Source: Candidatus Bathyarchaeota archaeon
Lineage (GTDB): Archaea > Thermoproteota > Bathyarchaeia > Bathyarchaeales > Bathycorpusculaceae
Assembly (NCBI GenBank): GCA_963782525.1
Contig: CAWAKC010000009.1
Span: forward strand, 1-64,000
Length of the DNA stretch: 64,000 nucleotides
Direction: 5' to 3'
In this document: positions 762-61,927 of the stretch, piece by piece
How the letters are laid out: each line of letters begins with the position of its first letter
Numbering within the stretch: position 1 is the stretch's first letter
Program-made: the position numbers and the translations under genes
The notes under the pieces: generated by a model
The model's database searches: none
Told to the model about the DNA's origin: nothing
What the model saw: only the letters and a program-made list of their open reading frames with translations

Positions 762-825
762 AAGTTTAGGTGCTCGCCATCTCGGTTTTTTGGAGAATGT
801 TGACGGCACAACTACTTGCTAATTA
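762..825 (+). repeat. Dispersed ~57-bp dyad repeat Y, copy 1
   Basis: aagtttaggtgctcgcca-tctcggttttttggagaatgt-tgacggcacaactactt; arms GTGC(T)CGCCA and TGACGGCAC. Confidence 0.9.
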
Positions 826-953
826 TTTGCCTTTTTTGAGAAATGGCGAATATGAAAAGTTAAATCCTGTTAAGAAACAAACACTTCCCAAACTTGCATC
901 ACAAGGTTGGGGATTCGTTGGGTTTAATTCTGCCAGATGTAGTTAACCAGATT

Positions 954-1340
954 TTATTTTATCATTATTGCTTCTTTTAAGGGCTTGAAGTGAGGATCCC
1001 CCGTTAGAATTTTAGAATCAAGCCTTCTAGCAGTAGCCAAAACATAGGCATCTGCAAGCCCAAAATCTTTGGCTGTTTTACGCATTTCACAATGCAGTAA
1101 TCCTGCCTGCAATGAAAGTTCTTCATCGACAATAACTACTTGCGAATTCCCATGTAAAACATCATATGCGACCTTTGCATCTTTGCCCATCCGTGCAACT
1201 TTACTAACAACTTCTCCAAGAGTCACTGCACAGGTAAATATGTCATCGTTGTTTTCAAGAATCGCAGAGACCTTGTTTCCTGAATCGGTTCCATCCAAAT
1301 ATTCAATCCACGCATAAGCATCTATAATATACTTAGCCAT
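954..1340 (-). CDS. vapC: PIN-domain toxin VapC
   Basis: IIDAYAWIEY, GEV, GLADAYVLA, LTGDPHF PIN acidic motifs. Confidence 0.9.
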   Translation of the reverse strand: MAKYIIDAYAWIEYLDGTDSGNKVSAILENNDDIFTCAVTLGEVVSKVARMGKDAKVAYDVLHGNSQVVIVDEELSLQAGLLHCEMRKTAKDFGLADAYVLATARRLDSKILTGDPHFKPLKEAIMIK

Positions 1341-1542
1341 GCGTTGTCAACTCATCTTGGGCGGTGAAAGGACCTACTCCTTTGAGGACTCCAAAGCCAT
1401 CTTTACGCAGTTTCTTGATTTTAATTTCAATAATTTCGCCTTCCTTAATTCTGTTTGCCTCAACTAGCTCTTTAGGCAAGGTAACTACTAATGAACCGCC
1501 GACTTTCCTTGTTTTTGCTAAACATTCGGTCAAGTATACCAA
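1333..1542 (-). CDS. vapB: AbrB/MazE-type antitoxin
   Basis: RKVGGSLVVTLPKELV...IKEGEIIEI AbrB signature; overlaps vapC. Confidence 0.85.
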   Translation of the reverse strand: MVYLTECLAKTRKVGGSLVVTLPKELVEANRIKEGEIIEIKIKKLRKDGFGVLKGVGPFTAQDELTTHG

Positions 1543-1707
1543 CCATTACATATAATGATACATGTGTTATATTTGAATTATCTTTTTTTAGAACAAGGCA
1601 TTAAACCAGAACCAATTGGGATGTTGTTTCATAGAAAGATGGCCTGGAAGGTTTAATTAAAAGATTGTATACTTGTATATTTGTATATGTATAGAGGGGT
1701 AGATTTA

Positions 1708-1917
1708 ATGAATGATACGACAACCATTCGTGTTTCAAAAAAAACTGCTCAAGCACTTGAAAATCTAAGAGAGAAACTTGACGCTCAAAATCTCGACGAA
1801 ACAATCCAGTTACTGGTCAAAAAACAGCGAAAAGCTGCATTAACCAAAGGCTTTGGCACCGCAAAGAACCGTTTAAAACCATACACTGAGGCAGACCGCG
1901 GTGAAGATCGTAATTGA
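1708..1917 (+). CDS. vapB: RHH-type antitoxin (VapB-like)
   Basis: MNDTTTIRVSKKT..L..L...LDETIQLL; ATG at 1708 after GAGGGG; overlaps the PIN gene. Confidence 0.8.
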   Translation: MNDTTTIRVSKKTAQALENLREKLDAQNLDETIQLLVKKQRKAALTKGFGTAKNRLKPYTEADRGEDRN

Positions 1918-2308
1918 CACGTATGCATGGGTCGAGCTGCTGCTTGGAAGCGAAAAAGGCAAAAAAGTTAAGGAAATACTTGAAAACGCCGAAGAAGTCT
2001 ACACTCCAAGCATCGTGTTAGCTGAGAGCGCCCGAAAATTCCTAAGAGAAGGCAACAACGAAAGTACAGTCGCAGAATGGCTCGACATAATCAACGCGGC
2101 TTCAAACATAACCCAAATCGATCCCGCATTATCTCTGGAAACAGCAAAATGCCATGGTGAACTATCTGAAAGAGCAAAAAATTTCAAGCAAAATACGCCC
2201 AGCCTATTTGACGCAATTGTACTTGCAACAGCTAGAATAAATCAGTGCAAAGTCCTAACCGGAGACGAACACTTCAAAGACTTACCTGAAACCATATGGC
2301 TAAATTAG
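1901..2308 (+). CDS. vapC: PIN-domain toxin VapC
   Basis: VIDTYAWVE, VLAE, SLFDAIVLA, LTGDEHF. Confidence 0.9.
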   Translation: MKIVIDTYAWVELLLGSEKGKKVKEILENAEEVYTPSIVLAESARKFLREGNNESTVAEWLDIINAASNITQIDPALSLETAKCHGELSERAKNFKQNTPSLFDAIVLATARINQCKVLTGDEHFKDLPETIWLN

Positions 2309-2412
2309 AGATTTTTGAATAAACAGTCTCGTTTCTTGAGTAAGCTAGCTTTCGCAGCGAATCTGAGCTATTGTTTAGCGCGGATTGTGTTAAAAAGAAC
2401 AACACCCCTTTG

Positions 2413-2486
2413 ATGCGTAGTCAACTTTAGGTGCACGCCATCTCATATGGTTTGAGAATAATGACGGCACAACTACTTTCTAATTA
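2413..2486 (+). repeat. Repeat Y copy 2
   Basis: atgcgtagtcaactttaggtgcacgccatctcatatggtttgagaataatgacggcacaactactttctaatta. Confidence 0.9.
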
Positions 2487-2502
2487 CTTTTTATCTTATT
2501 GA

Positions 2503-2590
2503 ATTTTCTGCGTGTATTTGTGTTCTACTTGTAGATGGCGTTGACTATAATTACCCAAAGTTTATTAATACTTACGACTCGTGATATAAA
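2503..2590 (+). promoter_or_regulatory. Conserved promoter/upstream region of the TasA-like genes (BRE-TATA caaagTTTATTAA)
   Basis: About 85 bp colinear with 56224-56310 upstream of the paralog; TATA-like box about 45 bp before the ATG. Confidence 0.6.
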
Positions 2591-2605
2591 AACAGGGACC
2601 ACAAC

Positions 2606-3055
2606 ATGAAACTTAAAGGAACACCCAGCTTAGCCATAATCGCATTAGCAATAACTGCACTTGCACTAACACTAACAACAGCCGCAGTCCTAAGCAACAA
2701 CCAAACAGTTCCCCTAACAGGAACAATAAACGCAGTCAACTTAGGCGTGTACTCCGACAGTGGCTGCACCCAAGCCGCAACATCCCTAAACGCAGGAGCC
2801 CTCAACCCAGGCGGCACCGCAACACAAACAGTATACATCAAAAACACCGGCAACATACCAGAAACGCTAACCATGACAACAGGCAATTGGAGCCCGTCCA
2901 ACGCCAACACTTACCTAACTCTATCCTGGAACCGGCAAAACACAGTCCTAAACGCAGGAACATCAATACAAGCAACCCTAACACTAACAGCAGCATCAAA
3001 CACCGGCACCCTAACAACCTTCAGCTGCGACGTAACACTAACAGGCACCCAATAG
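2606..3055 (+). CDS. Secreted TasA/camelysin/archaeal bundling-pilin-like fibre subunit (putative)
   Basis: Hydrophobic signal ending LTLTTAAVLS; strand QTVPLTGTI; LNPGG..TVYIKNTGN motif; C-terminal LTGTQ; 2 Cys; close paralog at 56324-56773. Confidence 0.6.
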   Translation: MKLKGTPSLAIIALAITALALTLTTAAVLSNNQTVPLTGTINAVNLGVYSDSGCTQAATSLNAGALNPGGTATQTVYIKNTGNIPETLTMTTGNWSPSNANTYLTLSWNRQNTVLNAGTSIQATLTLTAASNTGTLTTFSCDVTLTGTQ

Positions 3056-3207
3056 ACAATTTACTTTCAGCACATCTGTTAGACCATTTTCTTTGGTCTT
3101 TATCCCGAATTTTTTTGGTCTTCAAGCCACTGCATGTTTAAAATGAGTACACTTTTTGTAAATAAGAAGGATTAGGATTTCAACATTCTTTATTTTAAGA
3201 AATAATT

Positions 3208-3280
3208 CGTAGTCAAACTTAGGTGCTCGCCTACCTCAGATTAATAAAGGCTGTTGACGGGACAACTGGTCGTATAATTA
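3208..3280 (+). repeat. Repeat Y copy 3
   Basis: cgtagtcaaacttaggtgctcgcctacctcagattaataaaggctgttgacgggacaact. Confidence 0.85.
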
Positions 3281-3404
3281 TTTTAAAAATTTTAAGAAAA
3301 TTTCAATTTGTGTTTGCGTTGGAGCAAGAGGCTGGGCGTTTCACCCAGCGTTTTTGGCTCTGCAAGCCAGTGTCTTTCTCGACCACCCTTGCATTAAAGT
3401 GGGT

Positions 3405-3488
3405 TGGAAGCCTTCTCCTTTTCTCAATCTTCCTTTCTCCTTAAACAAAGCAAACCGCAAAAAAGCATATAAGACGTATTTCCAAAAC
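3405..3488 (-). promoter_or_regulatory. Orphan promoter/5' stub, similar to 10242-10320 and to the upstream of the wHTH gene at 53209
   Basis: ccttaaacaaagcaaaccgcaaaaaagcatataagacgtatttc vs ccttaaacaagcaacctcgaaaaacgcatataagtaatatttc; CTTATATG TATA-like box on the minus strand. Confidence 0.55.
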
Positions 3489-3569
3489 CGTAACATACCA
3501 AAAATGGTAAAGCAAAAAAGAGGCAAAAATACAAGAATTTTGGGCCTTTCTTCAACAACTCCGGTGTTA

Positions 3570-3627
3570 GGTTTAGGTGCTCGCCAAACCCAGACTAGTG
3601 AAGAATGCTGACGGCACAACTACATTT
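3570..3627 (+). repeat. Repeat Y copy 4 (contains the exosortase stop codon)
   Basis: ggtttaggtgctcgccaaacccagactagtgaagaatgctgacggcacaactac; exosortase TAG at 3620-3622 lies in the right arm. Confidence 0.9.
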
Positions 3628-5746
3628 GAACTATTTTTACAATTTTTTTTATAAAATTAGAAAAGAAAAAGAGTTTATTGTTGTTTGGTGTGCGACTTTT
3701 CCATGCTATGGAGGGGTGGTCTTCTTTGTTTACTACCGCCTGCTCTACTAATCCAGCTACTTGGGCTTCTGAGAGTTTTTGGCTAAGCCATAGAGGGTCA
3801 GCTGATTGGTTGGTTAGTTTTTGCAGTTGGTCTGCGATGGCGTGGGTTGTTGGAGTGTGGTTGTTTTGGGCGTTTTTGACTGCTTTGTTTATTAGTTGGT
3901 CTTGTTTTGGAAGTTTTCCGTAGAGGTTTAGAAGACCAAGTTTCTCTTCTCTATCCAAATAAAAGGAGTAGAGTATGAGTAAAAAAAGAATTGCAGTGGC
4001 GCCAGCTGAGAGGGCTAAACCGTTTTGGCTGATGCTTAATGCGATGGTGCTCCAAGTGTGTATGGGTTGCCAATAGTTGTTGATGGCTTGAGCAATGGGC
4101 AGTTGTTGGTTTTCAGCTTCAGCTACCCCTTTGGAAGGCGATGCATACATAATAAGGCTAATCATGACGCTTTTTGTTTGGGCTGTGCCGTTTGTGTTGA
4201 AGGTGGCTGTTTGATACCAGTAGAGGGTAACTTGGGTTTGGTTTGTGTCTTTGTATTGGAAGGCAAAGTACCGTGCAGTTATCGGCGGGTTATCTTGCAG
4301 TTGGATGTCTCGAAGGTCAAGTTGATTCACCCTCGCCTGGTCGCCTTGGCTAAGGGGCCAATTAACGAGGCAGGTTTCCCATCGGTGCTCCCCTGATGAG
4401 GTAGCGGCAATTTGAACGCTTACCCAAACAACAGAATTTGTATTGTTAATTGAGTTGTAGGAGTAGACGAGATCTGCGTCGTTGCCAGATATTTTCTCAA
4501 AGGAGGTGTCCCTATAGGAGTAGCTTAGTTGGTAACCTGCGATGTTGGGTAAGAGGGAATTTGATATATCAACTTCCATGCCTGAAGGAGTTTGAACTAA
4601 GACTTGTGCTGGACCTTTCGTTAATGCAAACACAGGTGCTTGAATAGATAAGATCATAACTATGATTATGGCGATGCCGGCGATTTTTGCGATGTCTACT
4701 TTGTTGATTTTTGTTTTAGGGAATTTGAAGAGTTTTCCGCAGTTGGGGCAGAATGGTTCGGTTGGTTTTGCTGTGGGTGGTTTGCATGTTGGGCAGGGTT
4801 GGGGGGGTTTGGGTTTTTTGAAGGCTTTATCGGTTATAGCCAGCAACAGCAATGTGCCTATGAACATAAGGACTGTAGCGCCTATGGTGTGGAAAATTTG
4901 GAGGGCTAAGTCTTCGCCAAAGTTGTAGCCTATTGCAAGAATCGTTGTTATGCGGAGTATATTTAGGGCAACAATTAACGGGATCCCCATTATGAGGATT
5001 GCAAATTTGTTTCGCAGCATCCCACGTGTAATGTATGCTATGAATAATGCGAATATGAGGAAGCCTATGAGGCTGTAAACGCCTGAGCAAGCCACGTCCA
5101 CCCCAAAGGGTAAGGTTGTGTGGTTTGGCTTGAGGAGCGTTATTACTGGACCTATATTGCTTGTTGAGAGCGTTGCATGTAGTCCAATCACATTTGCAAG
5201 GCTGTTTGATGCTAATGCGCTTAGGTTTGCGAGTGCTGAGCCGACGCCGAAGAGAATTTCTGAGGGGGGTGGAGTGAGGAAGATTAGGAACGCTAAGGGG
5301 AAAAGGAGTTGTTTTAGTGTTTGAGTGTTGAATAGTATGAGAATAAGTCCTGCTGTTAGAAAAGGCAGGGTAAGCATATGATATTCAAGAGGGGTAAAAG
5401 TGTAGCTGCCATACCAATATGTGAGTACGGCAACTGCACACAAGGACATACCCGCTAGTGTGCTGAAGTATTTTTGGAACCCGCGCGCCCCAACATGAGA
5501 AGACTGAAGGGAAGCGTTAATCATTTTGCGTTTTCGGAAAACTAGGTAACCGAAAAGGAATGGTATAGCGAGTATATGAAATGTTGATTCGTCGGTTAAA
5601 GCCCCTTTAAAAACTATGCTTAAGTCTTGAAAGTACAATGTAACTGCAGCTATGGTTATAACGGAGAATTTTAGTGCAATCGCTAAACTATTCTGGTTTA
5701 GCATTGAAGCCATCTTTACGGTGTTGGGGATTTTTAGTTTCTGCAT
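3620..5746 (-). CDS. Exosortase/archaeosortase (EpsH-type) fused to a Zn-ribbon, an EpsI-like domain and a C-terminal wHTH-like domain
   Basis: Multi-TM; catalytic triad VDVACSG / LNILRI / IFH; CPTC..CPNCG; EpsI-like HRWETC and TLYWY. Confidence 0.85.
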   Translation of the reverse strand: MQKLKIPNTVKMASMLNQNSLAIALKFSVITIAAVTLYFQDLSIVFKGALTDESTFHILAIPFLFGYLVFRKRKMINASLQSSHVGARGFQKYFSTLAGMSLCAVAVLTYWYGSYTFTPLEYHMLTLPFLTAGLILILFNTQTLKQLLFPLAFLIFLTPPPSEILFGVGSALANLSALASNSLANVIGLHATLSTSNIGPVITLLKPNHTTLPFGVDVACSGVYSLIGFLIFALFIAYITRGMLRNKFAILIMGIPLIVALNILRITTILAIGYNFGEDLALQIFHTIGATVLMFIGTLLLLAITDKAFKKPKPPQPCPTCKPPTAKPTEPFCPNCGKLFKFPKTKINKVDIAKIAGIAIIIVMILSIQAPVFALTKGPAQVLVQTPSGMEVDISNSLLPNIAGYQLSYSYRDTSFEKISGNDADLVYSYNSINNTNSVVWVSVQIAATSSGEHRWETCLVNWPLSQGDQARVNQLDLRDIQLQDNPPITARYFAFQYKDTNQTQVTLYWYQTATFNTNGTAQTKSVMISLIMYASPSKGVAEAENQQLPIAQAINNYWQPIHTWSTIALSISQNGLALSAGATAILFLLILYSFYLDREEKLGLLNLYGKLPKQDQLINKAVKNAQNNHTPTTHAIADQLQKLTNQSADPLWLSQKLSEAQVAGLVEQAVVNKEDHPSIAWKSRTPNNNKLFFFSNFIKKIVKIVQM

Positions 5747-5889
5747 GAAGAATGCTCGTGTGCTTCCTCTTTCTATTTGGAGATTTTGGTTTATGTTTGG
5801 AGTAGGTGAATAGTTAGTCGAAGTTGTTAAGGAATTTAAAAAAATGAGAGAGGATGGTTCCTCTTTTGGTGGCGTGAAGTCCTCTGTTT

Positions 5890-6747
5890 TTAGAGGGGTT
5901 TATTCAGGCGTAGGAGGCTTTTGCGTTTGTAGAATAGCAGTGCTGCGAAACTTGTGCCTAGGGCTGCTAGAGCGCCAAGGGTGTATTCTGGAAGTACGTT
6001 CGTAGGTAGCTGACCGTTTTGGTTATTGATGGTGTTGGTGTCTAATGTTACTGCGGCATTTAGCGCTATCAATCTGCCATCCACGGTAACGCCTGTTGTT
6101 GCCGTGATCGATGCTACTGCCAGGATGGTTCCTGCGAAAGTTGTGCTTGTTCCAAGTGTTGCTGAACTGCCAACTGCCCAAACTACGTTGCAAGGTTGGA
6201 GACCGTTGATGTAGAGTACCTTGCTACTTGATGCTGTAGTGAGTGTGCTTCCTATCTGGAAGAAAAAGAATGCGTTAGGGTCGCCTTGTGCGTCGAGGGT
6301 GAGGGTTCCTGTTAATTGAGCTGAAGATGAGAAGAAGTAGACGCCTGGCGTAAGAGTTTTCCCACCAAGATCTTGACCAGTTAAGTCCGTGGTAGTTGGC
6401 TGTGCGACAGCAAAGTTATAGGCGGTTAAGGCATCAGTTTCAGCGTTAGCCGGCACTGCACCAGCTGAGTAAATCGTTGATGGAGAATTCACTATTCCAG
6501 GAGGGAAGCCCGTAATCGAAGTACCCGGCGAAACACCCACATCTCCTGTAATAACGGTAGAACCGGTATTGGTTACTGTCGTGGCAGCTAAAACTGAGAA
6601 AGAGGCAGCCGTTCCTAGAGTATAGGTAGATGCTGAGACTCCTTGAACGGTGAAGGCACATGCTGCAGCCAGTAGAAGACCTATGATAAAAAGTGCGCTA
6701 ATATTTTTTTTCCCGTTTGTTTTTTTAAAAATAGTTTGTTTTGTCAT
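5890..6747 (-). CDS. Ice-binding-like (DUF3494) secreted protein with a PE(Y/F)-CTERM sorting tail
   Basis: LGTAASFSVLA..TVTNTG..GDVGVSPG, LTPGVY, FFFQIGSTLTTA, VVWAVGSSATLG, FAGTILA; tail VLPEY + TM + KRK. Confidence 0.9.
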   Translation of the reverse strand: MTKQTIFKKTNGKKNISALFIIGLLLAAACAFTVQGVSASTYTLGTAASFSVLAATTVTNTGSTVITGDVGVSPGTSITGFPPGIVNSPSTIYSAGAVPANAETDALTAYNFAVAQPTTTDLTGQDLGGKTLTPGVYFFSSSAQLTGTLTLDAQGDPNAFFFFQIGSTLTTASSSKVLYINGLQPCNVVWAVGSSATLGTSTTFAGTILAVASITATTGVTVDGRLIALNAAVTLDTNTINNQNGQLPTNVLPEYTLGALAALGTSFAALLFYKRKSLLRLNKPL

Positions 6748-6917
6748 TCAAATCTTGTTCTCCTAAGATCAAATTTTAATACTACTTAATGTATAGCGAC
6801 GCTCAGCTTATAAGATTAGAAGTACCAAAAGTAGGGCTCTAAAGTACTCCTCAAGAGCCACAGCTCAAAAAACACTCATTAGGCAGCGCAAGTTTTTTAG
6901 AAAAACCAATTGAGGGC

Positions 6918-7229
6918 TCAGTATTCCTCGATAGAAGCAAGATCCTGAGACTTTCTAAGAGCAGCTAAAAAAATTCTTCCCCGCTCAGAAATCACATACG
7001 AGGAGCCCCCGCTATTATCGTCCGCTTTCACTATGAAACCCTTCCTCAAAGAATCATTAAAGTACCTGTTAAAACAATAAAAATTCAAATTAGCCTTATA
7101 AATAATTCTCGTCTTTTTCTGAGGAACCAAGGTTGCCTCTAAAATAGAGGCAGTAATAGTATCCCAACCACGTTTTCGCACCGTACTCTTCACCTTCACG
7201 CTGAATCTTTGGAAAACACTCTTAAGCAT
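6918..7229 (-). CDS. Archaeal winged-HTH regulator (HTH_45 type)
   Basis: KRGWDTITASILE..KKTRIIYKANLN..Y....L.KGFI...YVISERGR. Confidence 0.8.
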   Translation of the reverse strand: MLKSVFQRFSVKVKSTVRKRGWDTITASILEATLVPQKKTRIIYKANLNFYCFNRYFNDSLRKGFIVKADDNSGGSSYVISERGRIFLAALRKSQDLASIEEY

Positions 7230-7545
7230 CTTAATTGTGGGAGGAGAACAAATAAGAAACTATCTAAATGAGAAATCTTGCGTTATCATAAGCCGTGGCT
7301 AACTCTTCAAAATGATATCCCTAACCGAAAAATAGACATCACCTAGCACCACTCGAATCCGCGTCTAGATGATTATTAATAATATTGAAAAAAATTTTGC
7401 TTATCCGCTCTATTTTAGAGAGTGCGGGTTTGTGCTCAGTATTCTAAATTCATAACTGATTTAATGCCATTCATTAACTGTTTACGATTGGGTATAGCGA
7501 ATTCAAAACCTCAATCAGAATAAGATAGTTATAGAAGTACCTGAG

Positions 7546-9867
7546 CTGGCACCTTCAAACGAAAAGAATGTCATTCGAGTTTTACTTGTTGATGATGACC
7601 CCTCGATTCTAGAGATTTCAAAACAAATTCTAACCGATATGAGAGGGGATTTCGACATTGAAAATGCCTATTGTGTTGATGAAGCCTTCAAGAAACTATC
7701 AACTGGAAAATATGATGTGGTCATTTCTGATTATGAAATGCCCCAAAAAGATGGTCTCCAATTCCTATTGGAGTTGCGTAAGCAGAACAACGAAATTCCA
7801 TTTATTTTGTTCACTGGGAAAGGCAGAGAGGAAATAGCTATACAAGCGTTGAATCTTGGTGCAGATAGATACTTCAACAAACAAGGCAACCCCGAAACAG
7901 TTTATGGAGAATTAGTGTATGGAATTGTACAGTTAGTAAGTCAAAACAGACTTAGTGAGAAACTATCCTTAGAAGAAGAACGGTTTAGACAATTATTCTC
8001 CAATACGCCTATGGCAGTAATAATCTACGAGGCAATTGATGAGGGAGAAGATTTTGTTTTCAAAGATATCAATTCTGCCGCTGAGAAAATTGAGAAAATT
8101 GAAAAAGCTTCAGTTTTAGGAAAGCGCGTGACAAAAGTTTTTCCAGGACTTGAAAATTTTGGCATTTTGGAAGTTTTTAAAAGAGTAATTAAAACTGGGA
8201 AGACAGAGTAATTTCCAGATAAACTATACCAAGATAATCGAGATATTGGTTCATGGCGTGAAAACTGGGTAATTAAGCTGTCTAACAATAACATCGCAGC
8301 CATATTCAATGACATCACTGAACGCAAAAAAGCTGAAGCAGAGTTGAGGAGGACATTTGAGGTTCTTGAAAGAGTAGGGGAAGGCATTGATGCGGGTTTA
8401 GCTGTAATCGGCAAAGATTACCGTGTGGTTTGGGCTAATAAACGGCTGATGAATTTGGGTGTTGCGCCTAACAGGAAATGTTATCAGACATTCAACCATT
8501 CAAAGAAGACTTGTCCTGATTGCGGCGTAAAAAAAATCTTTGAACAGAATGCATCTCTTGATGTCCATGAATACAAAACGGTTAACTCTAAAGGTGAAAC
8601 AGTCTGGCTTGAATTAAGAGTGTCTCCTTTCAAAGATACATATGGGAAAGTGACAGCCGCATTAGAACTTGCAGTTCCGGTAACTGAGCGTAAGAAAGCC
8701 GAGGAAGCCTTAAAGGAAAGCGAGAAGAAGTCAAGAGCAATAGTTGCCTACGCTCCTATTGGGATTGCTACTTCAGGTCCTGATAAACACTTCTTGAGCG
8801 CAAATGAAGCCTTCTGCAAAATACTTGGATATACAGAAGACGAATTACGAAAGCTAACTTTCAAGGACATAACCACTTCACAAGACCTCAAAGAAAGTGC
8901 CATAAAAATGTGTGAATTGGAAAATGGGACAATAGTTTCTTTTACGCTTGAGAAACGGTATGTCAAAAAAGACGGAACCCTAATAGATGGAAAAATCATG
9001 GTTAGTGCGGTGCGAAACCAAAATGGGGAACCTATTCTTTTCATTGCTGAACTCGAAGACATAACTGAACGCAAGAAGGCTGAAGAGCGCCAAAAGGTTT
9101 TGGAATCAAAAGTAAACAACTATTCGAAACACTTGAAGAACATGGTTGATTTGAGAACTGTCCAGTTGAAGGATGCTAATGAGCGGCTAGTTAGGGCTGA
9201 ACGATTAGCCGCTATAGGTGAGTTAGCGAGTATGGTTGGGCATGACTTGCGTAATCCGTTGGCAGGCATTAAGAATGCGACTTACTTCTTGAAAAAGAAA
9301 GGAAAATCAATTTCTGAAGCTCAGGCTAAAGAAACGCTTGAAATCATCGATAAAGCCATTGACCACTCAGATAAAATCATCAACGACCTGCTAGACTACT
9401 CAAGAGAGATGCGTCTGGAACTCACAAAATACAAAGCACACACTCTTGTAAAGGATGCTTTAGGGATGATTCAAATTCCAGATCGAATACAAATTGTAAA
9501 TCACGTTCAGGAAGACGCTTGGATTTGGGTTAACCCTGACAAGATGATGCGAGTTTTCATAAACCTCATTAAGAATGCAGTAGACGCCATTCCTGAGAAG
9601 GGAACAGTCGAAATCAGCAGTTGCCAAGCAGGAGACATGGTGAAGGTTGTTTTCTCTGACACAGGCACAGGCATACCTGAAGAGATTGTGCATAAGATTT
9701 TCACGCCGCTGTTCACCACCAAGGCACAGGGGATGGGCTTTGGTTTAGCTATATGTAAACGTATCATAGAGGCACATGGAGGCACTATAACGGTGAAAAC
9801 AGAAGTAAACAAGGGAACCACATTCACAATTACTTTGCCCAGTAAACCTAAAGAGCCACCTAGCTAA
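7546..9867 (+). pseudogene. Hybrid REC-PAS-PAS-PAS-histidine kinase with one in-frame TAA at 8209-8211
   Basis: REC motifs VLLVDDD / SDYEMP / FTGK begin upstream of ATG 7639; frame continues through the stop into 8344-9867; H-box HDLRNPL, N-box NLIKNA, DTGTG, GMGFGLAIC; start uncertain (CTG 7546). Confidence 0.8.
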
Positions 9868-9929
9868 AGACACTTTGTTGTCTGATAGAACGTTTTTCTT
9901 TCGCTCTTTTTTGTATTGTTGATGGAAAA

Positions 9930-9946
9930 TTGCGAGCACCTTAGTT
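9930..9946 (-). repeat. Left half of repeat Y in reverse orientation
   Basis: Minus strand reads aactaaggtgctcgcaa; right arm absent. Confidence 0.4.
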
Positions 9947-10241
9947 CTTGACGACAAGATTCGAGAAGAATCACAGACTACTATTCAAATTTGAATATCA
10001 CTTTAAAAGTAGATACCAGAATTAGGCTGTAACTGAAAAAACCGTACAAACCCCAATTAGTCCTAACCACATTTTAACTGGATGCATTTTCTTCCAAACG
10101 CCCATCAAATAAACCTATATGTTTTCAGTAAAAGGCAAGTGCAAACTCCCGGAATATGTCAAGAATGATGGCATGTGCACTTGGAGCGCAGAAATTTGCT
10201 AAATTTGTTGAGTATCAAACGGTTAAAGGCTCAATAATAAA

Positions 10242-10320
10242 TGGAAGCCTTCCCTTCTCCTCGCACCTTTTCTCCTAATAAGGCAAACCGCAAAATAGCA
10301 TATAAGGGATATTTCAAAAA
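10242..10320 (-). promoter_or_regulatory. Second orphan promoter/5' stub
   Basis: tggaagccttc..tctcctaataaggcaaaccgcaaaatagcatataagggatatttc, colinear with 3405-3488. Confidence 0.5.
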
Positions 10321-10435
10321 ACATAATATATCACAATCACAGAGATGAGGCTTAACCTAAATTATCTTTCAAAGTATTATTAGTATAGTCACGACTAAAC
10401 GAGTAAATGTAACAAAAAATTGTCCTCCACACAAG

Positions 10436-10620
10436 CGGTTTTGGGCTGCGCTTTGGTGATTTAAGTTGGAAAATTAGCAGACGATTTTGATACTCACTTT
10501 TTGGCCTAAGGTTTAGGCGTTGCTTTTGACGGCTTGAGCTATTGCTTGATATGCACTAGAAGGGAGGTTGTTATAAAAACCAGAGTCAATTCGAATAAGC
10601 TAATGGGTAACGGAGTTTAA
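10436..10620 (-). pseudogene. 3' remnant of a DUF1616 gene plus downstream flank, paralogous to 14010-14190
   Basis: ttaggcgttgcttttgacggcttgagctattgcttgata matches ttaggcgctgattttaacagcttgagtttttgcttgata; shared flank aagttggaaaatta. Confidence 0.5.
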
Positions 10621-10682
10621 CTATCTTATGAAGTAGAGGTTAGGATTTTAACCTACTTTAGGCGCTTTTTGATTCCATTTGG

Positions 10683-10895
10683 CTATGGGTAGGCCATTAA
10701 ACCAATTATTCGGATGGCAACTGTTACGAAGAATAGGAGACCTGTGGTTATGGCTACGTTTTTGAGCCTTTTTTTATTTAATGTGAGGTTTTTTAGGCCA
10801 TAAGATGATGCGAATTCTGAGATTAGGAGTAGTAGGATGGAATCCACGGTCAGAAGTAAGATAATATCTGTTGAGGTTAAAGGCGGGAGTTGCAT
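10683..10895 (-). CDS. Small two-TM membrane protein
   Basis: 70 aa, two hydrophobic helices; paralog at 14778-14993. Confidence 0.75.
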   Translation of the reverse strand: MQLPPLTSTDIILLLTVDSILLLLISEFASSYGLKNLTLNKKRLKNVAITTGLLFFVTVAIRIIGLMAYP

Positions 10896-10898
10896 GTT

Positions 10899-12055: not shown

Positions 12056-12078
12056 CTCTAAAGTTTTTTTTGGCTAAG

Positions 12079-14993: not shown

Positions 14994-14995
14994 TT

Positions 14996-53823: not shown

Positions 53824-53958
53824 CTTTGTTTGATAGAAGAAGAACCGTGGTTGCTCCACTGCAGCGGAGTTTGCGTTTTAGGTTGCTTTTCTGGTTTGGG
53901 CTTTGGGGCGAATTTTGGATGCGTCTTTATGCGTCTTAATGCGGTTGGGGAAGGTTTG
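53824..53958 (+). repeat. Element X copy
   Basis: About 135 bp colinear with 59902-60033. Confidence 0.8.
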
Positions 53959-54046
53959 GGAGATAGATTGTTCTAGATTCCCTCTCTTTCTGCCTACGGT
54001 TAGAAGACGGTCATTTGTTTTTCGATGAAAAGATAAAGATGAACAA

Positions 54047-55809: not shown

Positions 55810-55921
55810 GGAACTCCACCGAATATCATTAGACAGCTCAATTTAATATAAAAGTTTGCAACGTAAAATTCGAATTCTATCAGAGGCAACATGGAAACCG
55901 AGTGCAAATTCTCAGGCTTTC

Positions 55922-55983
55922 CTTTAGGTGTTCAACAGCTGCTGATTGAAATGCAACAGAATAGCTGCTGGCACAAAAAACTC
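55922..55983 (+). repeat. Repeat Y copy 9 (degenerate)
   Basis: ctttaggtgttcaac...agaatagctgctggcacaa; same position after an epimerase 3' end as copy 5. Confidence 0.5.
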
Positions 55984-56013
55984 TGAAGCTATGACGTTGA
56001 TTATGGCTAATCT

Positions 56014-56190: not shown

Positions 56191-56323
56191 TTCACTAACT
56201 CTCATGCGTATTTAGCTTCGTTTTTTCTGTGTGTATTTGTGTACACCATGTAGGTAGCATTGACCACCAATTCTCAAAGTTTATTAATACTCACGACTTA
56301 CGACATAAATTGTGAAGATCACA

Positions 56324-56773
56324 ATGAACACTCAAAAACTCTCCAAAATAGCAGTAATAGCTTTAGCAATAGCCGCACTCGCCCTAACACTAACCACAGC
56401 TGCACTCCTCAGCACAAGTCAAAACATTCCCCTAAACGGAACAATAAACGCAGTAAATTTAGGCGTATACTCCGACAGCGCCTGCACACAAACCTGTTCA
56501 GCCCTAAACGTTGGATCCCTCAATCCTGGAGGAACCGGCACACAAACAATATACATCAAAAACACCGGCAACGTCCCAGAAACACTAACCATGAACGCAA
56601 GCAATTGGAATCCAACTGACGCCACCTCTTCACTAACTCTAACCTGGAACCAACAAAACACCGTCCTACCCGCTGGACAGTCGATCCAAGCAACACTAAC
56701 CTTAACCGCAGCAGCAAACACCGGCAGCCTCACAACCTTCAGCTGCGACGTAACACTCACAGGCACCCAATAA
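56324..56773 (+). CDS. Secreted TasA/bundling-pilin-like subunit (paralog 2)
   Basis: Highly similar to 2606-3055; QNIPLNGTI, LNPGG, IYIKNTGN, LTGTQ. Confidence 0.6.
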   Translation: MNTQKLSKIAVIALAIAALALTLTTAALLSTSQNIPLNGTINAVNLGVYSDSACTQTCSALNVGSLNPGGTGTQTIYIKNTGNVPETLTMNASNWNPTDATSSLTLTWNQQNTVLPAGQSIQATLTLTAAANTGSLTTFSCDVTLTGTQ

Positions 56774-56824: not shown

Positions 56825-57031
56825 TCAGAAGTAGGGTGCCCTATCTTTAATTGTAAAACGGTTTTGGTAACATCTTTTAGACGGATTTGGCTCGGCTATT
56901 AGTCTTCCAGCTTCGATTTTGTAACTAACTTTTGTGTGGGCGTAAAGTTTTAGTTTTTCTCTGATTTCTTTAGAAGGGAAAAGCTCTCTTTCGAACCCAC
57001 TCGACTTTGCTGCATTTATCTGATCCCCCAA
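56825..57031 (-). pseudogene. Degraded AbrB-type antitoxin
   Basis: ELFPSKEIREKL..KVSYKIEAGRLIAEP; SRVGSK in another frame; no toxin nearby. Confidence 0.5.
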
Positions 57032-57111
57032 ATAAAACTATATTTTTTCGATAATAAACTTAGGCAGATTTCAGAATTGTTGTATATTTTGTTTGGGAGT
57101 GGTTAGTTGTG

Positions 57112-57338
57112 TTAGAAGAAGCTTGGCTTTTTTGCGTTTTAGTAGAAGGTTTGTTTTAAGTTGCTTTTGTTGAACAAGCTTTGAAGAGCATTTTGGTTGC
57201 GTCTGCATATGTCATGGTTCGTCTGCCGAAAACAAGGATGTTCCAGTTACTGCTAAATGAGATAAGCGCAATCAAGTTTAGGTGCTCGCTAACCACAGAT
57301 TAATGAAGAATGATGACGGCAAAACTACTTTATAACTA
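57112..57338 (+). repeat. Element X followed by repeat Y copy 10 (57266-57338)
   Basis: Colinear with 11831-12055. Confidence 0.85.
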
Positions 57339-57383
57339 CTCAATTTATTAGGGTGCAGCCATAAAGTTTTCTAAGGGATTTAT

Positions 57384-57644
57384 TTGACTGAGACAGACTT
57401 AGAAAAAGTCTATACAGAAATGAAACGTGTTAGGGTAGAGTTAAAGTCCATAGAAAGAACACTTGAAAGTCTCGCAGAATCTCTAATACCAAAGGAAAAA
57501 GCAAGCCCAGAGGAAATAAAAGAACTTGAATCTCTCAGGAATGAAGCGGAGTGTGGAGACAGCATTCCTTTGGAAGAAGTGCTAAAGAAGCACGGAGTAA
57601 AAAGCTGCCTTTTGCTGAAACCTTCGCCATTTCGGCTGCTTTAG
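57384..57644 (+). CDS. Orphan RelB-like antitoxin (putative)
   Basis: Coiled coil plus EEIKEL...GDSIPLEEVLKK tail; flanked by Y copies 10 and 11; no toxin. Confidence 0.5.
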   Translation: MTETDLEKVYTEMKRVRVELKSIERTLESLAESLIPKEKASPEEIKELESLRNEAECGDSIPLEEVLKKHGVKSCLLLKPSPFRLL

Positions 57645-57733
57645 TCGTCATTTTCTTTCTTTACCTGATATTGTGATGTATATTTCTTTAGTTCTTCTAC
57701 TTTACCTTAAGAAAAGGCGTAAAACAAATAATA

Positions 57734-57799
57734 ATCAACTTTAGGTGCTCGCAAACCTCAGGTTAGTAGAGAACGATAACGGCACAAAAACTGCTCTAA
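57734..57799 (+). repeat. Repeat Y copy 11
   Basis: atcaactttaggtgctcgcaaacctcaggttagtagagaacgataacggcacaa. Confidence 0.85.
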
Positions 57800-57812
57800 C
57801 GAAAAATATTGT

Positions 57813-58095
57813 TTATTTAAAAAATCTAGAACCAATGCGTAACGACTTGAACTTGCCCTCTTCAGGTAATAGACTTCTCCACGCGAACGCTGGCTTATCC
57901 TTTTTGTTCACCAACGCCTTTTCTATCAACCCGACTTTTTCAGCCTCTTGAAGCTCACTTTTTAGTTGTTCTTTATCGGTGGGCATGTTCGTTAGTTTGG
58001 TTAATTCGTCGGCTATGCGTCTGTTGTTGGGTTGCCTTGTTTTTGGGCGTTATCGACGGTTTTGATTGGGCTTTCTGGCTAATTTTTTTGGGTAA
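57813..58095 (-). pseudogene. 3' stub of a second exosortase fusion
   Basis: NAQKQGNPTT/RIADELTKLTN..LQEAEKVGLIEKALVNKKDKPAFAWRS matches the C-terminus of 3620-5746. Confidence 0.75.
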
Positions 58096-58121
58096 TTCAA
58101 CATCAATTCACAACTTCAAAT

Positions 58122-58550
58122 CTAAGTTTTCTTGTTTGGGTATTCCATGAAGTTGTAGTATTTTGTGCCTTCAAGCTTCTTTACAAGCTTTTGGTCTAAA
58201 GTTAGCAACTGTGCATCTAGCTTCTCGGCAAGCGATAGGAAAGCAGCGTCATAAACTGTAATGTTTAGTTCTATTGCTAGAACCATTGCGTCTTTTATGA
58301 CTTCTGAAAAGTTATGTACCGCGTAGAGATCCATCATTTCTGCGGCTTGTATGAAGGCTTTTATTGCATCCTTTGCATCAAGCCTATCGGATTTCTTGTA
58401 CTTTATCGCGTTGGCTACTTCGTAATAGTTCAAGTCCAGAGCATGGAAGTTATCATACTCTGATAATCTCTTAGAAGCCCAATCAGAGTGTTCCTCTGGT
58501 GTGACTAGTGCAGCAACCACAGATGAATCAACAACAACCTCAGTGGGCAT
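58122..58550 (-). CDS. vapC: PIN-domain toxin VapC
   Basis: VVDSSVVA, YEVANAI, TVYDAAFLSLA, LLTLDQKL. Confidence 0.9.
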   Translation of the reverse strand: MPTEVVVDSSVVAALVTPEEHSDWASKRLSEYDNFHALDLNYYEVANAIKYKKSDRLDAKDAIKAFIQAAEMMDLYAVHNFSEVIKDAMVLAIELNITVYDAAFLSLAEKLDAQLLTLDQKLVKKLEGTKYYNFMEYPNKKT

Positions 58551-58773
58551 GCTCGCGATCCTCCCTAATGATATCTGCCGAAGGCGTTGTCACTCCAGCT
58601 TTTTTGTACAGATCATCTCTGAACCTATCCACCTGTCTCATTAACTGCTTTAATTTCTTCCTTTTCACCATTCGCTCAAGACATTCCCTAACCTCTTGGG
58701 CATAATCTAAGTTTAATTCCTGAAGTTCGTCTTTGAGCTTCTTGGATACTCTGACTGCAATTACAGCGCTCAT
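58540..58773 (-). CDS. vapB: RHH-type VapB antitoxin
   Basis: SAVIAVRVSKKLKDEL..SADIIREDRE; overlaps vapC. Confidence 0.85.
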   Translation of the reverse strand: MSAVIAVRVSKKLKDELQELNLDYAQEVRECLERMVKRKKLKQLMRQVDRFRDDLYKKAGVTTPSADIIREDREHAH

Positions 58774-59058
58774 GTGTAAACATTAAATAAACAAAATATA
58801 TAAATAATTTGTTAACAATATGTAAACGCCGTCAATTTTGCGCTTAACTCTTCCTATGGACCGGTAACTTGTATTAGTGTTAAACAGCAAGAATATTTAA
58901 TGTTGCATGAAAATCTGGCACTTGTTTTTCTGGGGGTTTTGCCGTTGCTTAACTTTTTGTTTGTTGATAGAACAACAACACTTGGGAATGGATTGTTGTT
59001 GTTCTCCCTTTGGGCGGCAATTAAAGAAGCAGAACACTTAGCTGCATGGCAGCCAACT

Positions 59059-59772
59059 TTAGTTTTTAATCTGCCTCTGCATTTTAGCTATTTTATCTTT
59101 TCTGTTTTTTTCCTCAGCTTGCATGACTTCTTCTACTTTGGACTCATCGTTTAGTAGAAAACTGTGAATTTCTCTAAGGCTGCCTTCGGGGTACTCCGAT
59201 AGTATTTTTTGGAAGAATCTGGTGTCCTCTAAGAAAACGCCGTTAAGGTAGTAATCGAATATGTAATCGAGTTTTGCTGAGTCGGTGAACTGGGCACCTC
59301 TTACATAACTACTTAAATACGCTGCAAACATCTCCATGGCGTCTTCGAAAATTATTTTCATCTGTGTTTTGAGGTATTCGGTTTTTTCTTTGCCATTGAG
59401 GCTTTGGGCTTTTTCTTTGATGTCTTTATATTGTTGTTCTAAAGAATAGGGTTTGTTTTGGTCGCTTTTTGTTTGTTGGGTGGTTTTTTCTTGGTTAATG
59501 TCGAGTTCTTCGAGGGGGGTTGCGATTTTGTACCAGACTTCTGCTCCGCCGTCGGGTCCTAATCTGGCTTCTTTGTTTATGCTTCCTTCATCGTGCATCT
59601 TGTCTAGGTTTTGTTTTAGTGTGGTTGGTCCCATTTGGAGTTCTTTTAGGTGGTCTTTGAGGGTTTTCCATCTTGCTTGGCCGCCGGTTTGGATTAAGAC
59701 TTTGTAGATGTCTTCTCTTCTGATCTTGAGTTTGTTGTATTCGGTGTTGCCTTTCATGTTGTTTCTCCCCAA
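59059..59772 (-). CDS. N-terminal winged-HTH protein (mobile-element regulator-like)
   Basis: IYKVL..ARWKTL..MGPTTLKQNLDKM..EGSINK..VWYKI. Confidence 0.6.
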   Translation of the reverse strand: MGRNNMKGNTEYNKLKIRREDIYKVLIQTGGQARWKTLKDHLKELQMGPTTLKQNLDKMHDEGSINKEARLGPDGGAEVWYKIATPLEELDINQEKTTQQTKSDQNKPYSLEQQYKDIKEKAQSLNGKEKTEYLKTQMKIIFEDAMEMFAAYLSSYVRGAQFTDSAKLDYIFDYYLNGVFLEDTRFFQKILSEYPEGSLREIHSFLLNDESKVEEVMQAEEKNRKDKIAKMQRQIKN

Positions 59773-59901
59773 GCATTTTCAGTATTGAGATACTATATCA
59801 GTATCGTTTTAATAAAAGTTTTACCAAGATACTATTGGGGGTAATCAAGTTACCGCTAAATCAAAAAACAAGCAGAAAAGCAACAACAACGCAGACCCTG
59901 A

Positions 59902-60033
59902 CTTTGTTTGATAGAAGAAGACAGTTAGTTGCCCCCTGCGGCGGAGTTTGTGTTTTGGGTTGCTTTTCTTGTTTGGGCTTTGCAGCGTTTTCTGGCTGCG
60001 TCTTCACCCGTCGCTATATGGTTGGGGAAGGTT
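59902..60033 (+). repeat. Element X copy, leader of the tandem-AbrB-like gene
   Basis: Colinear with 53824-53958. Confidence 0.8.
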
Positions 60034-60051
60034 GGTTTAGGAGGTGTTTTT

Positions 60052-60330
60052 GTGCCCCTAACTGAGAGAGTTGTTTTCAAAACCCGCATGCAACGAGGCG
60101 GCAGAGTACAAGTCAACAAATACGTAAGATGGCGCTACAAGCTTGAACCAAGTCAGTACCTATCAGTGTGGGTAAACGTCCCGGCTATCTGGAATTCTGC
60201 AGAGGGTTTTTTGTGTAGAATGACCAAAGACGGCAGAATAGTAATCCCCAAACTCACAATGGCATGCCTCAAAAAAGATAAACCAAACTTAGACGGCTAC
60301 CTAATAGAAGTCACCCTAAAACCCTTCTAA
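60052..60330 (+). CDS. Tandem AbrB-like DNA-binding protein
   Basis: GTG after AGGAGGTG; two halves MQRGGRVQV and MTKDGRIVIPK. Confidence 0.6.
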   Translation: MPLTERVVFKTRMQRGGRVQVNKYVRWRYKLEPSQYLSVWVNVPAIWNSAEGFLCRMTKDGRIVIPKLTMACLKKDKPNLDGYLIEVTLKPF

Positions 60331-60458
60331 CATCAAGCAGTTTATGAGGGGTGCTGGACAATATACCCAATTTGCTAAATCTATAAAATAGCAAAACACT
60401 AATTAACTAATTTGTCAAAATAGTAAAGTAGTTGTTCGTCATTGAGGTAATCGTTAAT

Positions 60459-61718
60459 ATGAACATTGAATCGGCGCTTACAAGATATGTTGATTACGCA
60501 AATAAAATAGAATTAATTAAAAGAGACGTTGCTTTGCGAGAAGGGAATTTCATCAATGCGATAATAGGTCCCAGACGCTCAGGCAAAACATCTTTGATGC
60601 TATTATACATTAAAAGTCTTGACGTTGAGAAGGGCAACAAAGTATTCATCAACTGTGAAGACATAGATTTTGTAGGAATAACAGCAAACGATCTTACCGC
60701 ATTAGAAGAAGCCATATACCGAATCTACAAACCAGATATGACCAAAGACATTTACTTCTTCATCGATGAAGTGCAGACTTTTCCTGAATGGTCCAGATGG
60801 CTAAGAACCCTCTTTGACGAACGGAGATATAAGATCTTTATAACAGGCTCAACCTCAGACTTATCACTAGACAAATTGCCCTCAGAACTACGTGGCAGAG
60901 CTGTTAACACTTTGGTTCTGCCTTTTTCATTCAGGGAATACTTAAGAATAAAGAGAATAACGCCAGAAGAATACATGAAAACAGACGAGACCAGCAAAGT
61001 CGTGGGAGCGCTGTCTGAATTCCTTGATTTCGGTGGTTACCCCGAGATAGCAAAAAGTGAAGACCCTGTTTTGAAGCATACCTTGCTCTCCGAGTTATAC
61101 GCTACCGTAATACAGCGGGACCTCATAGAGAAATATGGCATAAGAAAAACCGCTGTTTTCAAAGCTTTTGTGAATTCCCTCTTCGGTTCAGCATGCAGAA
61201 ACGTATCCATACCCAGCCTTATCAGTTGGTTCGAAATGCAGGGAACAAAAATAAGTAGTGTAACCGCACTCAACTACCTGAATAATGCACAGTCAGCATT
61301 CCTTTTCTTTTTGATATATCCATATTCTAGAAAAATAAAAGAAAGAACCACCAAACCAAAGCTCTACGTTTCAGACACTGGAATACTAGGGCTTTTTGAC
61401 ACAGGCAAAGGAAAAAAACTCGAAAACACTGTGCTTGTAGAACTCATTAGAAGAAAAGAAAACATTCACTACTATAAGGCTAAGTCAGCTGATGTAGATT
61501 TTGTGCTAACTAAAGAAAACGTTCCATTTGAACTCATTCAAGTCAGCTACAGCATAAACCATCCAGAAACGTACGCGAGAGAAACTAATTCTCTTCTGGA
61601 AGCAAGCGAGAAGTTAAACTGCAACAACCTCACCATAGTTACTTTCAATGAAGAAAGAAATATCGAACGAAACGGAAAAATCATCAGAGTTCTACCAGCA
61701 TGGAAATGGCTAAAATAG
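60459..61718 (+). CDS. AAA_14 ATPase with a DUF4143 C-terminal domain
   Basis: GPRRSGKT, FIDEVQ, ITGS, GGYPE, KLYVSDTG, LEN, DVDF..IQVS. Confidence 0.85.
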   Translation: MNIESALTRYVDYANKIELIKRDVALREGNFINAIIGPRRSGKTSLMLLYIKSLDVEKGNKVFINCEDIDFVGITANDLTALEEAIYRIYKPDMTKDIYFFIDEVQTFPEWSRWLRTLFDERRYKIFITGSTSDLSLDKLPSELRGRAVNTLVLPFSFREYLRIKRITPEEYMKTDETSKVVGALSEFLDFGGYPEIAKSEDPVLKHTLLSELYATVIQRDLIEKYGIRKTAVFKAFVNSLFGSACRNVSIPSLISWFEMQGTKISSVTALNYLNNAQSAFLFFLIYPYSRKIKERTTKPKLYVSDTGILGLFDTGKGKKLENTVLVELIRRKENIHYYKAKSADVDFVLTKENVPFELIQVSYSINHPETYARETNSLLEASEKLNCNNLTIVTFNEERNIERNGKIIRVLPAWKWLK

Positions 61719-61877
61719 CTAAAGCTACAGATTATTCGCCTTGCACATGGTGATTTTCATTATGTTCCAATGAGGTTGGGAACTTGCCGAGAAAACCCGA
61801 GTTTTCTGAGCATTTTGAAAGAGCTTAGAATAAACCTCCTTCTGCGAGAATAATTGCATTTTCCGCTTAGGGCCTAA

Positions 61878-61927
61878 TTAGGTTTAATTGCTCGCCAACA
61901 TAGATTAGTGGAGAATGCTGGTGGTAC
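61878..61927 (+). repeat. Repeat Y copy 12
   Basis: ttaggtttaattgctcgccaacatagattagtggagaatgctggtggtac. Confidence 0.7.

Follow-up and report, generated by a model that had tools for sequence, protein, structure and literature searches.

Integrons are, to our knowledge, the only well-understood system in which genes are filed as interchangeable cassettes, and archaeal integrons use the same attC and IntI parts as those of bacteria. The accretion of cis-mobilizable and integrative and conjugative elements (CIME/ICE) and the pdif modules of Acinetobacter plasmids offer another case: discrete modules, often carrying toxin-antitoxin (TA) or accessory genes, have a recombination site on either side and re-assort among replicons. 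The sites involved are short double-stranded cores used by known tyrosine recombinases (Int or XerC/D), and pdif sites alternate in orientation. The repetitive extragenic palindromes and bacterial interspersed mosaic elements (REP/BIME) linked to RAYT, like the ends of IS200/IS605, are extragenic and lie at the 3' ends of genes; they form short imperfect palindromes in which the head is conserved and a base is bulged, and REPs are dispersed genome-wide in both orientations. Here we describe a repeated hairpin element found in a 64,000-nt stretch of DNA (hereafter the window; positions 1 to 64,000 of contig CAWAKC010000009.1) from a Candidatus Bathyarchaeota archaeon (assembly GCA_963782525.1). 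We give an even chance to the reading that copies of this element mark the junctions in a cassette array that resembles an integron and is confined to one genus of Bathyarchaeia.

In the description of attC sites given in PMC5027507, complementary R boxes stand at the base of the hairpin (5'-RYYYAAC ... GTTRRRY-3', with conserved AAC/GTT triplets) and the recombining strand carries more G:T pairs (Nivina 2016, PMC5027507). A cluster of attC sites lacking integron integrases (CALIN) is defined in the main text of Ghaly 2022 (Sci Adv, PMC9668308) as two or more attC sites spaced by less than 4 kb. According to the same text, nine archaeal phyla, Thermoproteota among them, have integrons and CALINs; Bathyarchaeia are not mentioned. 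No description of the present repeat was found in the literature searched, in which Ghaly 2022 was covered by its main text only.

The repeat is real and far above chance. The 12-mer TGACGGCACAAC from its right arm, with at most two mismatches allowed, matched the window 12 times against 2.96 expected, a count reached in none of 100 shuffles, and 11 of these 12 matches lie on the plus strand. A profile built from the copies and run with nhmmer over the 2.87-Mb, 12-contig genome returned 9 matches (E 5e-21 to 1e-12), all of them at 749 to 61944 on the plus strand of the window's contig, the other 11 contigs being free of matches; a covariance model (CM) used without filters recovered the same 9 copies at 59-88 bits. 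A preliminary description of the window had counted 12 copies. Nine of them were confirmed; the copy at 55922 is marginal (55912-55994, minus strand, 13.6 bits, E 2 with filters off) and may be decayed, while those at 30834 and 33884 are unsupported, as neither gave a CM match at E ≤ 10 with filters off. Some recognisable words can be read by eye at 30834, and a weak nhmmer match lies near 33884 (33933-33965, E 0.16). The consensus given in that description, with imperfect inverted arms, one extra base and a variable centre, is as we find it. The strand is not: the site had been written on the plus strand, and the better-folding strand is the opposite one. The minus strand of the window is called the model orientation below.

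Read in model orientation, thus on the minus strand, the array starts with its most divergent copy at 61872-61947 (59.4 bits) and continues with copies at 57729-57806 (76.0 bits), 57266-57342 (88.3 bits), 30487-30563 (87.9 bits), 11994-12068 (68.7 bits), 3561-3637 (84.5 bits), 3207-3284 (77.4 bits) and 2415-2490 (82.7 bits), the last copy being that at 754-829 (82.9 bits, nhmmer E 4.6e-19). The copies at 3207, 2415 and 754 are of a short form. The copy at 30487-30563 heads, on the open reading frame (ORF) map, an 18-kb glycosylation operon (30031-12268). That at 3561-3637 overlaps the stop codon of an exosortase-like gene (3620-5746), covering the last 18 nt of its ORF, and the other copies lie outside long ORFs. 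The G+C content of the window is 39.4%, compared to 41-44% for the contigs.

The conserved unit spans about 77 nt and comprises a core of about 55 nt with semi-conserved flanks on either side. In the core, a main stem of 9 bp carrying one bulged base leads through an internal loop to an inner stem of 4 bp; the terminal loop differs between copies in both sequence and length. A GTAG word stands at the 5' edge of the core. In model orientation the 5' flank is A/T-rich, with the consensus TAAATAATTAGAAAGTAG and stop codons in all three frames, and the 3' flank is short (CTAAAC-NTGACTAYGC). The core is closed in all frames, and a coding repeat was accordingly rejected. Pairing was measured on 55 distinct metagenome copies, none of which had been used in model building: paired cells made up 96.4% of the main stem and 88.9% of the inner one. 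A possible outer helix (GTAGTT/GACTAC) was dropped, being paired in 65.5% only. Three positions are mostly G-U on the model strand, equivalent to C-A mismatches on the other strand, and changes at the G-U positions preserve pairing, with UG 46, UA 5, CG 4 and unpaired 0 at one of them.

These features bring the element close to attC sites, with which it shares the imperfect hairpin, the extrahelical base, the variable terminal loop and the G:T/U strand asymmetry (attC features as described in PMC5027507). As in the Vibrio superintegron with its VCR attC repeats and in CALINs, co-oriented and similar imperfect-hairpin sites stand about 1 kb apart. The preliminary description was nevertheless right in saying that the element is not a canonical attC, since the R-box arrangement is absent from all nine copies. 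A regular expression for the R boxes, run on both strands, matched the window 14 times, with boxes complementary at 6/7 or better in four cases, and none of these matches spanned or overlapped any of the nine elements; GTT-like and AAC-like words occur in the order opposite to that of attC. The sites fall within the CALIN spacing of less than 4 kb but are not attC by the R-box test. The arrays also resemble the archaeal integrons of Ghaly 2022 in occurring in archaeal metagenome-assembled genomes, as mostly integrase-less site clusters with short cassettes; those integrons, as presented in the main text of PMC9668308, were detected by attC models and have canonical attC folding and an IntI with the IntI-specific domain, whereas here neither R boxes nor such an IntI were found.

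The element is restricted to one genus of soil and peat Bathyarchaeia. Its distribution is patchy: CM matches were obtained in 9 of 61 related genomes including the source genome, all from that genus; 8 of its 36 other species carry the element, compared to none of 24 genomes from the order's other 11 families. Positive genomes hold 1 to 25 matches at E ≤ 0.001, the richest being G012 (25) and G029 (19); G000 designates the source genome, other G numbers related genomes, and L numbers fetched loci. An exact 26-base pattern, searched in one genome each of 185,579 species, was found in 35 stretches, all titled Candidatus Bathyarchaeota or Bathyarchaeia, which makes the element a practical marker for these islands. 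The pattern is also present in 40 metagenome contigs holding 65 copies. It has no match in viral contigs, and a long-form copy (described below) has none in plasmid or phage collections.

Orientation is uniform in all 53 fetched loci with at least two copies, some of which overlap, and only one contig carries two arrays, which are 28 kb apart in opposite orientation and face each other. Neighbouring elements are separated by a median of 1227 nt (quartiles 933-2282, n = 133), and 105 of the 133 spacings are below 2.5 kb. Clustering and common orientation had been put forward as a check in the preliminary description, which regarded random scatter over the genome without any link to breakpoints as contrary to its proposal: in the source genome, 9 of 9 copies lie within 62 kb on one strand and the 2.87 Mb hold no copies elsewhere. 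The ends of arrays showed no gene or sequence in common, no contig-end repeat links the start of the window's contig to another contig, and none of the 40 metagenome loci has the terminal repeat of a circular contig.

What lies between the elements moves between species. Locus L021 (4308-5281) and locus L032 (4100-5089) share a cassette at 84% identity, with homology that starts and stops in elements. Another cassette, whose homology likewise starts and stops in elements, is shared by L034 (5961-7056) and L021 (5224-6314) at 91.5% and is found in L028 at 86%. In the window, the cassette at 57343-57728 (plus strand), which holds an 86-aa ORF, is 90% identical to a cassette in the array of another species: the match of 57272-57603 with L022 reaches 90.4% and its homology stops inside the element. 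Past both elements, the flanks of shared cassettes are unrelated between species. Cassettes are 88-95% identical between species, compared to 69-74% for larger genes in or beside the arrays (68.8% for the exosortase-like gene, 74.0% for a GT2 block and 74.4% for a 321-aa gene), which suggests from sequence identity that their exchange is recent. Homology between arrays of different species ends within 15 nt of an element in 35 of 211 cases, against 7.1 expected. Flanks joined without the element were found for 0 of 164 elements, across the compared loci and the genome.

Metagenomes provided a second view of these rearrangements. Read-level data consisted of Logan contigs covering small shares of the stretch; parts that they leave uncovered carry no weight as evidence. 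Peat-metagenome contigs with at least 88% identity to parts of window 500-4000, which probably come from relatives, join 745 to 3566 and 3059 to 791; the shorter side of these joints measures 51 and 38 nt, the junctions are at elements and the same modules are rearranged. A further peat contig joins 1587 to 2413, for which the evidence is weak because the side of the joint has only 28 nt. Four of the seven metagenome joints have sides below 30 nt, and such short-sided joints may come from repeats or from other organisms; many metagenome contigs match 3569-3622 only, which is the conserved core. Together, these comparisons establish that units are exchanged between species and re-ordered, and that the two flanks of a site enter new combinations only by way of a site. 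The element bounds cassette-like modules that re-assort between genomes, as the preliminary description had supposed.

Several results weigh against reading the element as the junction site of a cassette system. Among recent pairs with near-identical upstream flanks, linkage ends at columns 0-20 in 9 of 10, and among those with near-identical downstream flanks 19 of 27 show no linkage before column 66, the remaining exchange points being scattered inside the core; these pairs share elements and are not independent. Since upstream linkage ends early and downstream linkage begins late, each flank is part of its cassette and the core often moves with neither of them. An integron-type single crossover, in which the site travels with its cassette, is thus not what was observed, and the single crossover point implied by the site-specific reading of the preliminary description is replaced by exchange at both core edges and sometimes inside. 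Covariation is no higher than in shuffles because the sequence is so conserved. Predicted folding as single-stranded DNA is weak on both strands (-0.5 to -8.1 kcal/mol for the favoured strand) and in 3 of 4 copies no better than in shuffles, with z near 0. Coding residues in the intervals are distributed 61% on the strand of the element and 39% on the other, and several TA modules stand side by side without a site between them, for example in L021 (6324-15516).

The search for a partner enzyme adds to these difficulties. PF00589 has no match on the window's 240-kb contig. Large ORFs near arrays were scanned in two sets (102 + 44, or 146), and the 25 families listed for each set include no recombinase. 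G000 has six intact tyrosine recombinases (L070-L075), which score at most 68 bits with the integron-integrase model TIGR02249, the cut-off of which is 265, and no serine recombinase was found in the 5 array-bearing genomes searched. Three genes were tried and rejected as partners over 41 genomes of the genus: a tyrosine recombinase of about 500 aa, present in 28 but not found in G002 and broken in G012; a 432-aa tyrosine recombinase, present in 9 and not found in G000, G001 and G023; and a 321-aa winged helix-turn-helix (wHTH) gene, present in 10 and not found in G001, G002 and G029. The preliminary description was right in seeing no recombinase within the window. Its placing of the enzyme outside the window found no backing, given that neither an integron integrase nor a serine recombinase was found and that no tested family tracks the element.

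The likeness to integron arrays is one of layout, content and outcome. As in integrons, there are TA and defence cassettes, ORF-less cassettes and cassettes shared in different order, and the site stands at the 3' side of the upstream gene. The differences lie in the parts: R boxes in 0 of 9 copies, no IntI found, no conserved array-end gene or sequence seen, no single crossover point, weak predicted folding of the single-stranded DNA, and cassettes that look like self-contained transcription units, with 39% of coding residues on the other strand. In the absence of an integron integrase, of an attI/Pc platform and of attC R boxes, the array works like an integron in its outcome but is not of that family.

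The pattern of exchange fits either exchange at one or the other foot of the hairpin, or breakage of the palindrome repaired from another copy, and does not fit a single crossover of the integron type. Two copies of the site would recombine, the interval between them would be excised and could then be re-inserted at another copy. The process might be driven by a trans-acting recombinase acting at the hairpin base; alternatively, the imperfect palindrome might provoke breakage with repair, or recombination over short homologies. A more ambitious proposal, which we offer tentatively and consider possible rather than probable, is that of an independent cassette-capture system analogous to integrons, in which a recombinase or nuclease outside all recognised families would recognise a new structured site by the two feet of its hairpin, and which would stockpile TA, defence and surface-glycan cassettes and exchange them between species. 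An array that follows the logic of integrons with a different site and no IntI would mean that cassette filing evolved more than once, and would point to a new recombination activity; it would also explain how abundant uncultured archaea of soil and peat vary their surface glycans, TA sets and defence genes.

The alternative that survives best, although we regard it as unlikely, is that the element acts as a structured RNA within transcripts of its better-folding strand: it would stabilise 3' ends, terminate transcription or be an intercistronic site of processing that cassette genes have in common, and recombination would be only a by-product of the repeats. Folded as RNA, the model strand is better than the other in 6 of 6 copies (-8.6 to -15.3 versus -4.7 to -12.2 kcal/mol), and the consensus folds at -5.86 kcal/mol on the model strand versus -0.93 on the other, while single-stranded DNA folds weakly on both; the best predicted hairpin among the copies folded is that of 2415-2490 (-15.3 kcal/mol, z -2.9). 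The G-U pairs, kept by changes that preserve pairing, agree with this alternative, as do the large operons of the window, which are on the same strand as the better-folding one. Genes also end at the site rather than start there for 190 of 307 neighbours, and of 157 nearest upstream genes, 112 have their end at the element. However, orientation follows the array and not the adjacent gene: 45 of the 157 upstream neighbours are on the other strand, and downstream neighbours are convergent in 78 cases and co-directional in 72 (n = 150). In addition, the folding z-scores are modest (-0.5 to -2.9), covariation does not exceed that of shuffles, and Rfam gave no match to the element. At the gathering threshold, the sole Rfam match in the window is a tRNA-like sequence between two copies, and sensitive scans of 3100-3700 and 56900-57420 gave sub-threshold chance matches only. 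Confinement to variable islands in 9 of 61 genomes would also be odd for a general RNA signal.

Less probable still is that the elements are att scars of serial integration (accretion), left by small modules that lack an integrase and would be mobilised in trans by that of a larger element, for instance the primase-helicase element adjoining the array. The array shares with accretion and pdif modules its discrete TA or accessory modules bounded by site copies, and tandem integration would yield direct repeats in one orientation. A primase-helicase with the D5_N/DUF5906 pair is encoded at C9:64067-66697 (C9 designating numbering on the window's contig), 2.1 kb past the first element; this pair was detected in 3 of 102 large ORFs near arrays, a homologous 851-aa ORF lies inside the array of another species, and several mobile tyrosine-recombinase families exist in these genomes. 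Yet neither the two tyrosine-recombinase families tested nor the 321-aa neighbour shows co-occurrence with the element, the crossover is not fixed, and some arrays are made of twenty units of about 1 kb, each with a TA pair only. The lack of any match of the pattern in viral contigs and of the long-form copy in plasmids or phages also speaks against it, and unlike the short core sites of accretion and pdif modules, the element is a 55-nt hairpin with all copies direct and no known cognate enzyme. A related candidate, a tRNA-derived att site, was rejected: the only tRNA-like sequence (3323-3392) lies between two copies and overlaps neither.

Some of the genes considered here deserve description in their own right. 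Beyond the first element, the 321-aa wHTH gene and the 876-aa primase-helicase follow each other (window 62067-64000 and C9:64067-66697); the latter matches a PHROG DNA primase (E 6e-75), and the two genes constitute the replication module of a mobile element that has integrated here and has no integrase in its vicinity. The 321-aa protein has no PHROG or PDB relative, and its AlphaFold model (pLDDT 46) is too poor to search. In at least 4 other genomes its gene lies within a few kb of a tyrosine recombinase, which belongs to the family of about 500 aa in G005, G031 and G034 and lies about 1 kb away in G023. In G000, this family is encoded at C1:2101-3618 (C1 being another contig of the same genome), C8:86013-87515 and C4:37660-39117; its members are often near contig ends and often broken, and the family is probably a transposon-like element that breaks assemblies. 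Against the NCBIfam model of archaeal XerA, the six intact tyrosine recombinases of G000 reach 75 bits at best for a cut-off of 220, so that the chromosome-resolution recombinase of this genome is either divergent or unassembled.

We consider it very improbable that the element is a tiny non-autonomous hairpin insertion (REP/PATE-like, moved by a Y1 transposase of the IS200/IS605 type) inserted between pre-existing modules. Such an origin would account for a core linked to neither flank in recent pairs, for a bulged-base hairpin with a GTAG word at its 5' edge, which we take to resemble REP and IS608 ends, and for a short bulged palindrome at gene 3' ends as in REP/BIME and IS200/IS605; Y1_Tnp genes are moreover present in 3 of 5 genomes, with 3 in G000 and 10 in G002. 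The 0 of 164 empty sites argue against an inserted mini-element, however, and unlike REPs the copies are confined to arrays of a single orientation, uniform in 53 of 53 loci, with all 9 copies of the source genome in 62 kb, while Y1_Tnp was not found in G012 and G029, the two genomes with the most matches (25 and 19). A target-duplication model was also rejected, as adjacent cores are hardly more alike than others (0.742 versus 0.727 and 0.705).

Finally, a canonical integron array without integrase is scarcely credible: co-oriented sites less than 4 kb apart with short ORFs recall the archaeal CALINs known from Thermoproteota among others, but the R-box arrangement occurs in 0 of 9 elements, the word order is reversed, no protein reaches the integron-integrase cut-off, the cassette units have, by eye, their own T-runs and in one case a TATA-like box, and the main text of Ghaly 2022 makes no mention of Bathyarchaeia (PMC9668308).

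The contents of the intervals are mostly as the preliminary description had stated. Many intervals of about 1 kb hold one two-gene unit, encoding proteins of about 80 and 130 aa, and those scanned encode PIN, MazE-like, MNT/HepT or DUF3368-PIN proteins. In other intervals there is one glycosylation gene (for a GT2 glycosyltransferase, a flippase or an epimerase), a gene for a small Ig-like protein that is secreted, one for an AAA_14-DUF4143 ATPase, or non-coding DNA only. Read by eye, terminator-like T-runs stand just before the element in cassettes and at least one TATA-like box just after it. In L024 (about 5002-15054), an apparent tandem duplication of about 5.0 kb includes three elements with their cassettes; its ends are not at elements, and it is either real or an assembly artefact.

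In the window, the contig end (1-753, plus strand) carries an MNT/HepT TA pair at 38-678 (Pfam NTP_transf_2 and HepT-like; PADLOC PDC-S09) and is followed by the element at 754. The next interval (830-2414) holds two divergent PIN/antitoxin pairs (Pfam PIN and MazE_antitoxin), at 954-1542 on the minus strand and 1681-2308 on the plus strand, which may be separate modules elsewhere, as the weak 1587-2413 joint hints. An RNA run gave two contigs, which cover 1234-1538 only, within a vapBC pair. The cassette at 2491-3206 (plus strand; ORF map and domain scan) encodes one secreted Ig-like protein of 149 aa (2606-3055). This protein has a paralogue at 56312-56773, also on the plus strand; both are of about 150 aa, with an N-terminal hydrophobic signal and an Ig-like domain (weak HYDIN/VesB-like match), and relatives are found beside elements in at least 4 other genomes. 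The 276-nt interval at 3285-3560 has no ORF and contains a lone tRNA-like sequence on the minus strand (3323-3392; Rfam tRNA, 37.9 bits), which has GCA in the anticodon loop and an atypical T-arm, and in which ARAGORN calls no tRNA.

Longer intervals hold several genes. One is occupied by the exosortase block and another (12069-30486) by the 18-kb glycosylation operon. In the former, a 708-aa protein resembling exosortase (EpsH), the C-terminal part of which is DUF3485-like, adjoins an ice-binding-like protein (3620-6747, minus strand). The C-terminus of the latter protein reads PEY, a hydrophobic helix and KRK, which we take to be the tripartite form of an exosortase/archaeosortase sorting signal. 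An exosortase homologue followed by an element is also found in a second species (L031). The same block encodes on the plus strand (7639-9867) a response-regulator/PAS protein and a PAS histidine kinase, which could control the surface-protein and glycan genes. In the interval at 57807-61871, a PIN pair (58122-58773) and a 237-aa gene accompany an AAA_14/DUF4143 ATPase (60432-61718), which has a match to the defence candidate PDC-S01.

Besides the short form of the element, a long form is seen in 39 of 126 unique copies, in which about 125 nt more of conserved non-coding sequence come after the element. Two such copies lie in the window on the minus strand, at 57145-57342 (element 57266-57342, extension 57145-57263, extension profile E 1.5e-28) and at 11865-12068 (element 11994-12068, extension 11865-11991, E 4.4e-29). 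Most copies of the extension are interrupted by stops in all frames, any one frame being open in 13 of 39 copies at best, and no convincing consensus fold is seen on either strand. In L027 and L028 two elements stand about 250 nt apart and the interval has no ORF; in L027 this interval is essentially the extension, and we assume the same for L028. Weaker, core-less copies of the extension were noted in the window at 59944-60068 and 53867-53985 and outside it at C9:69028-69145, C9:69520-69634 and C1:83295-83409. They form a second repeat family, of which at least two members are located upstream of co-directional genes.

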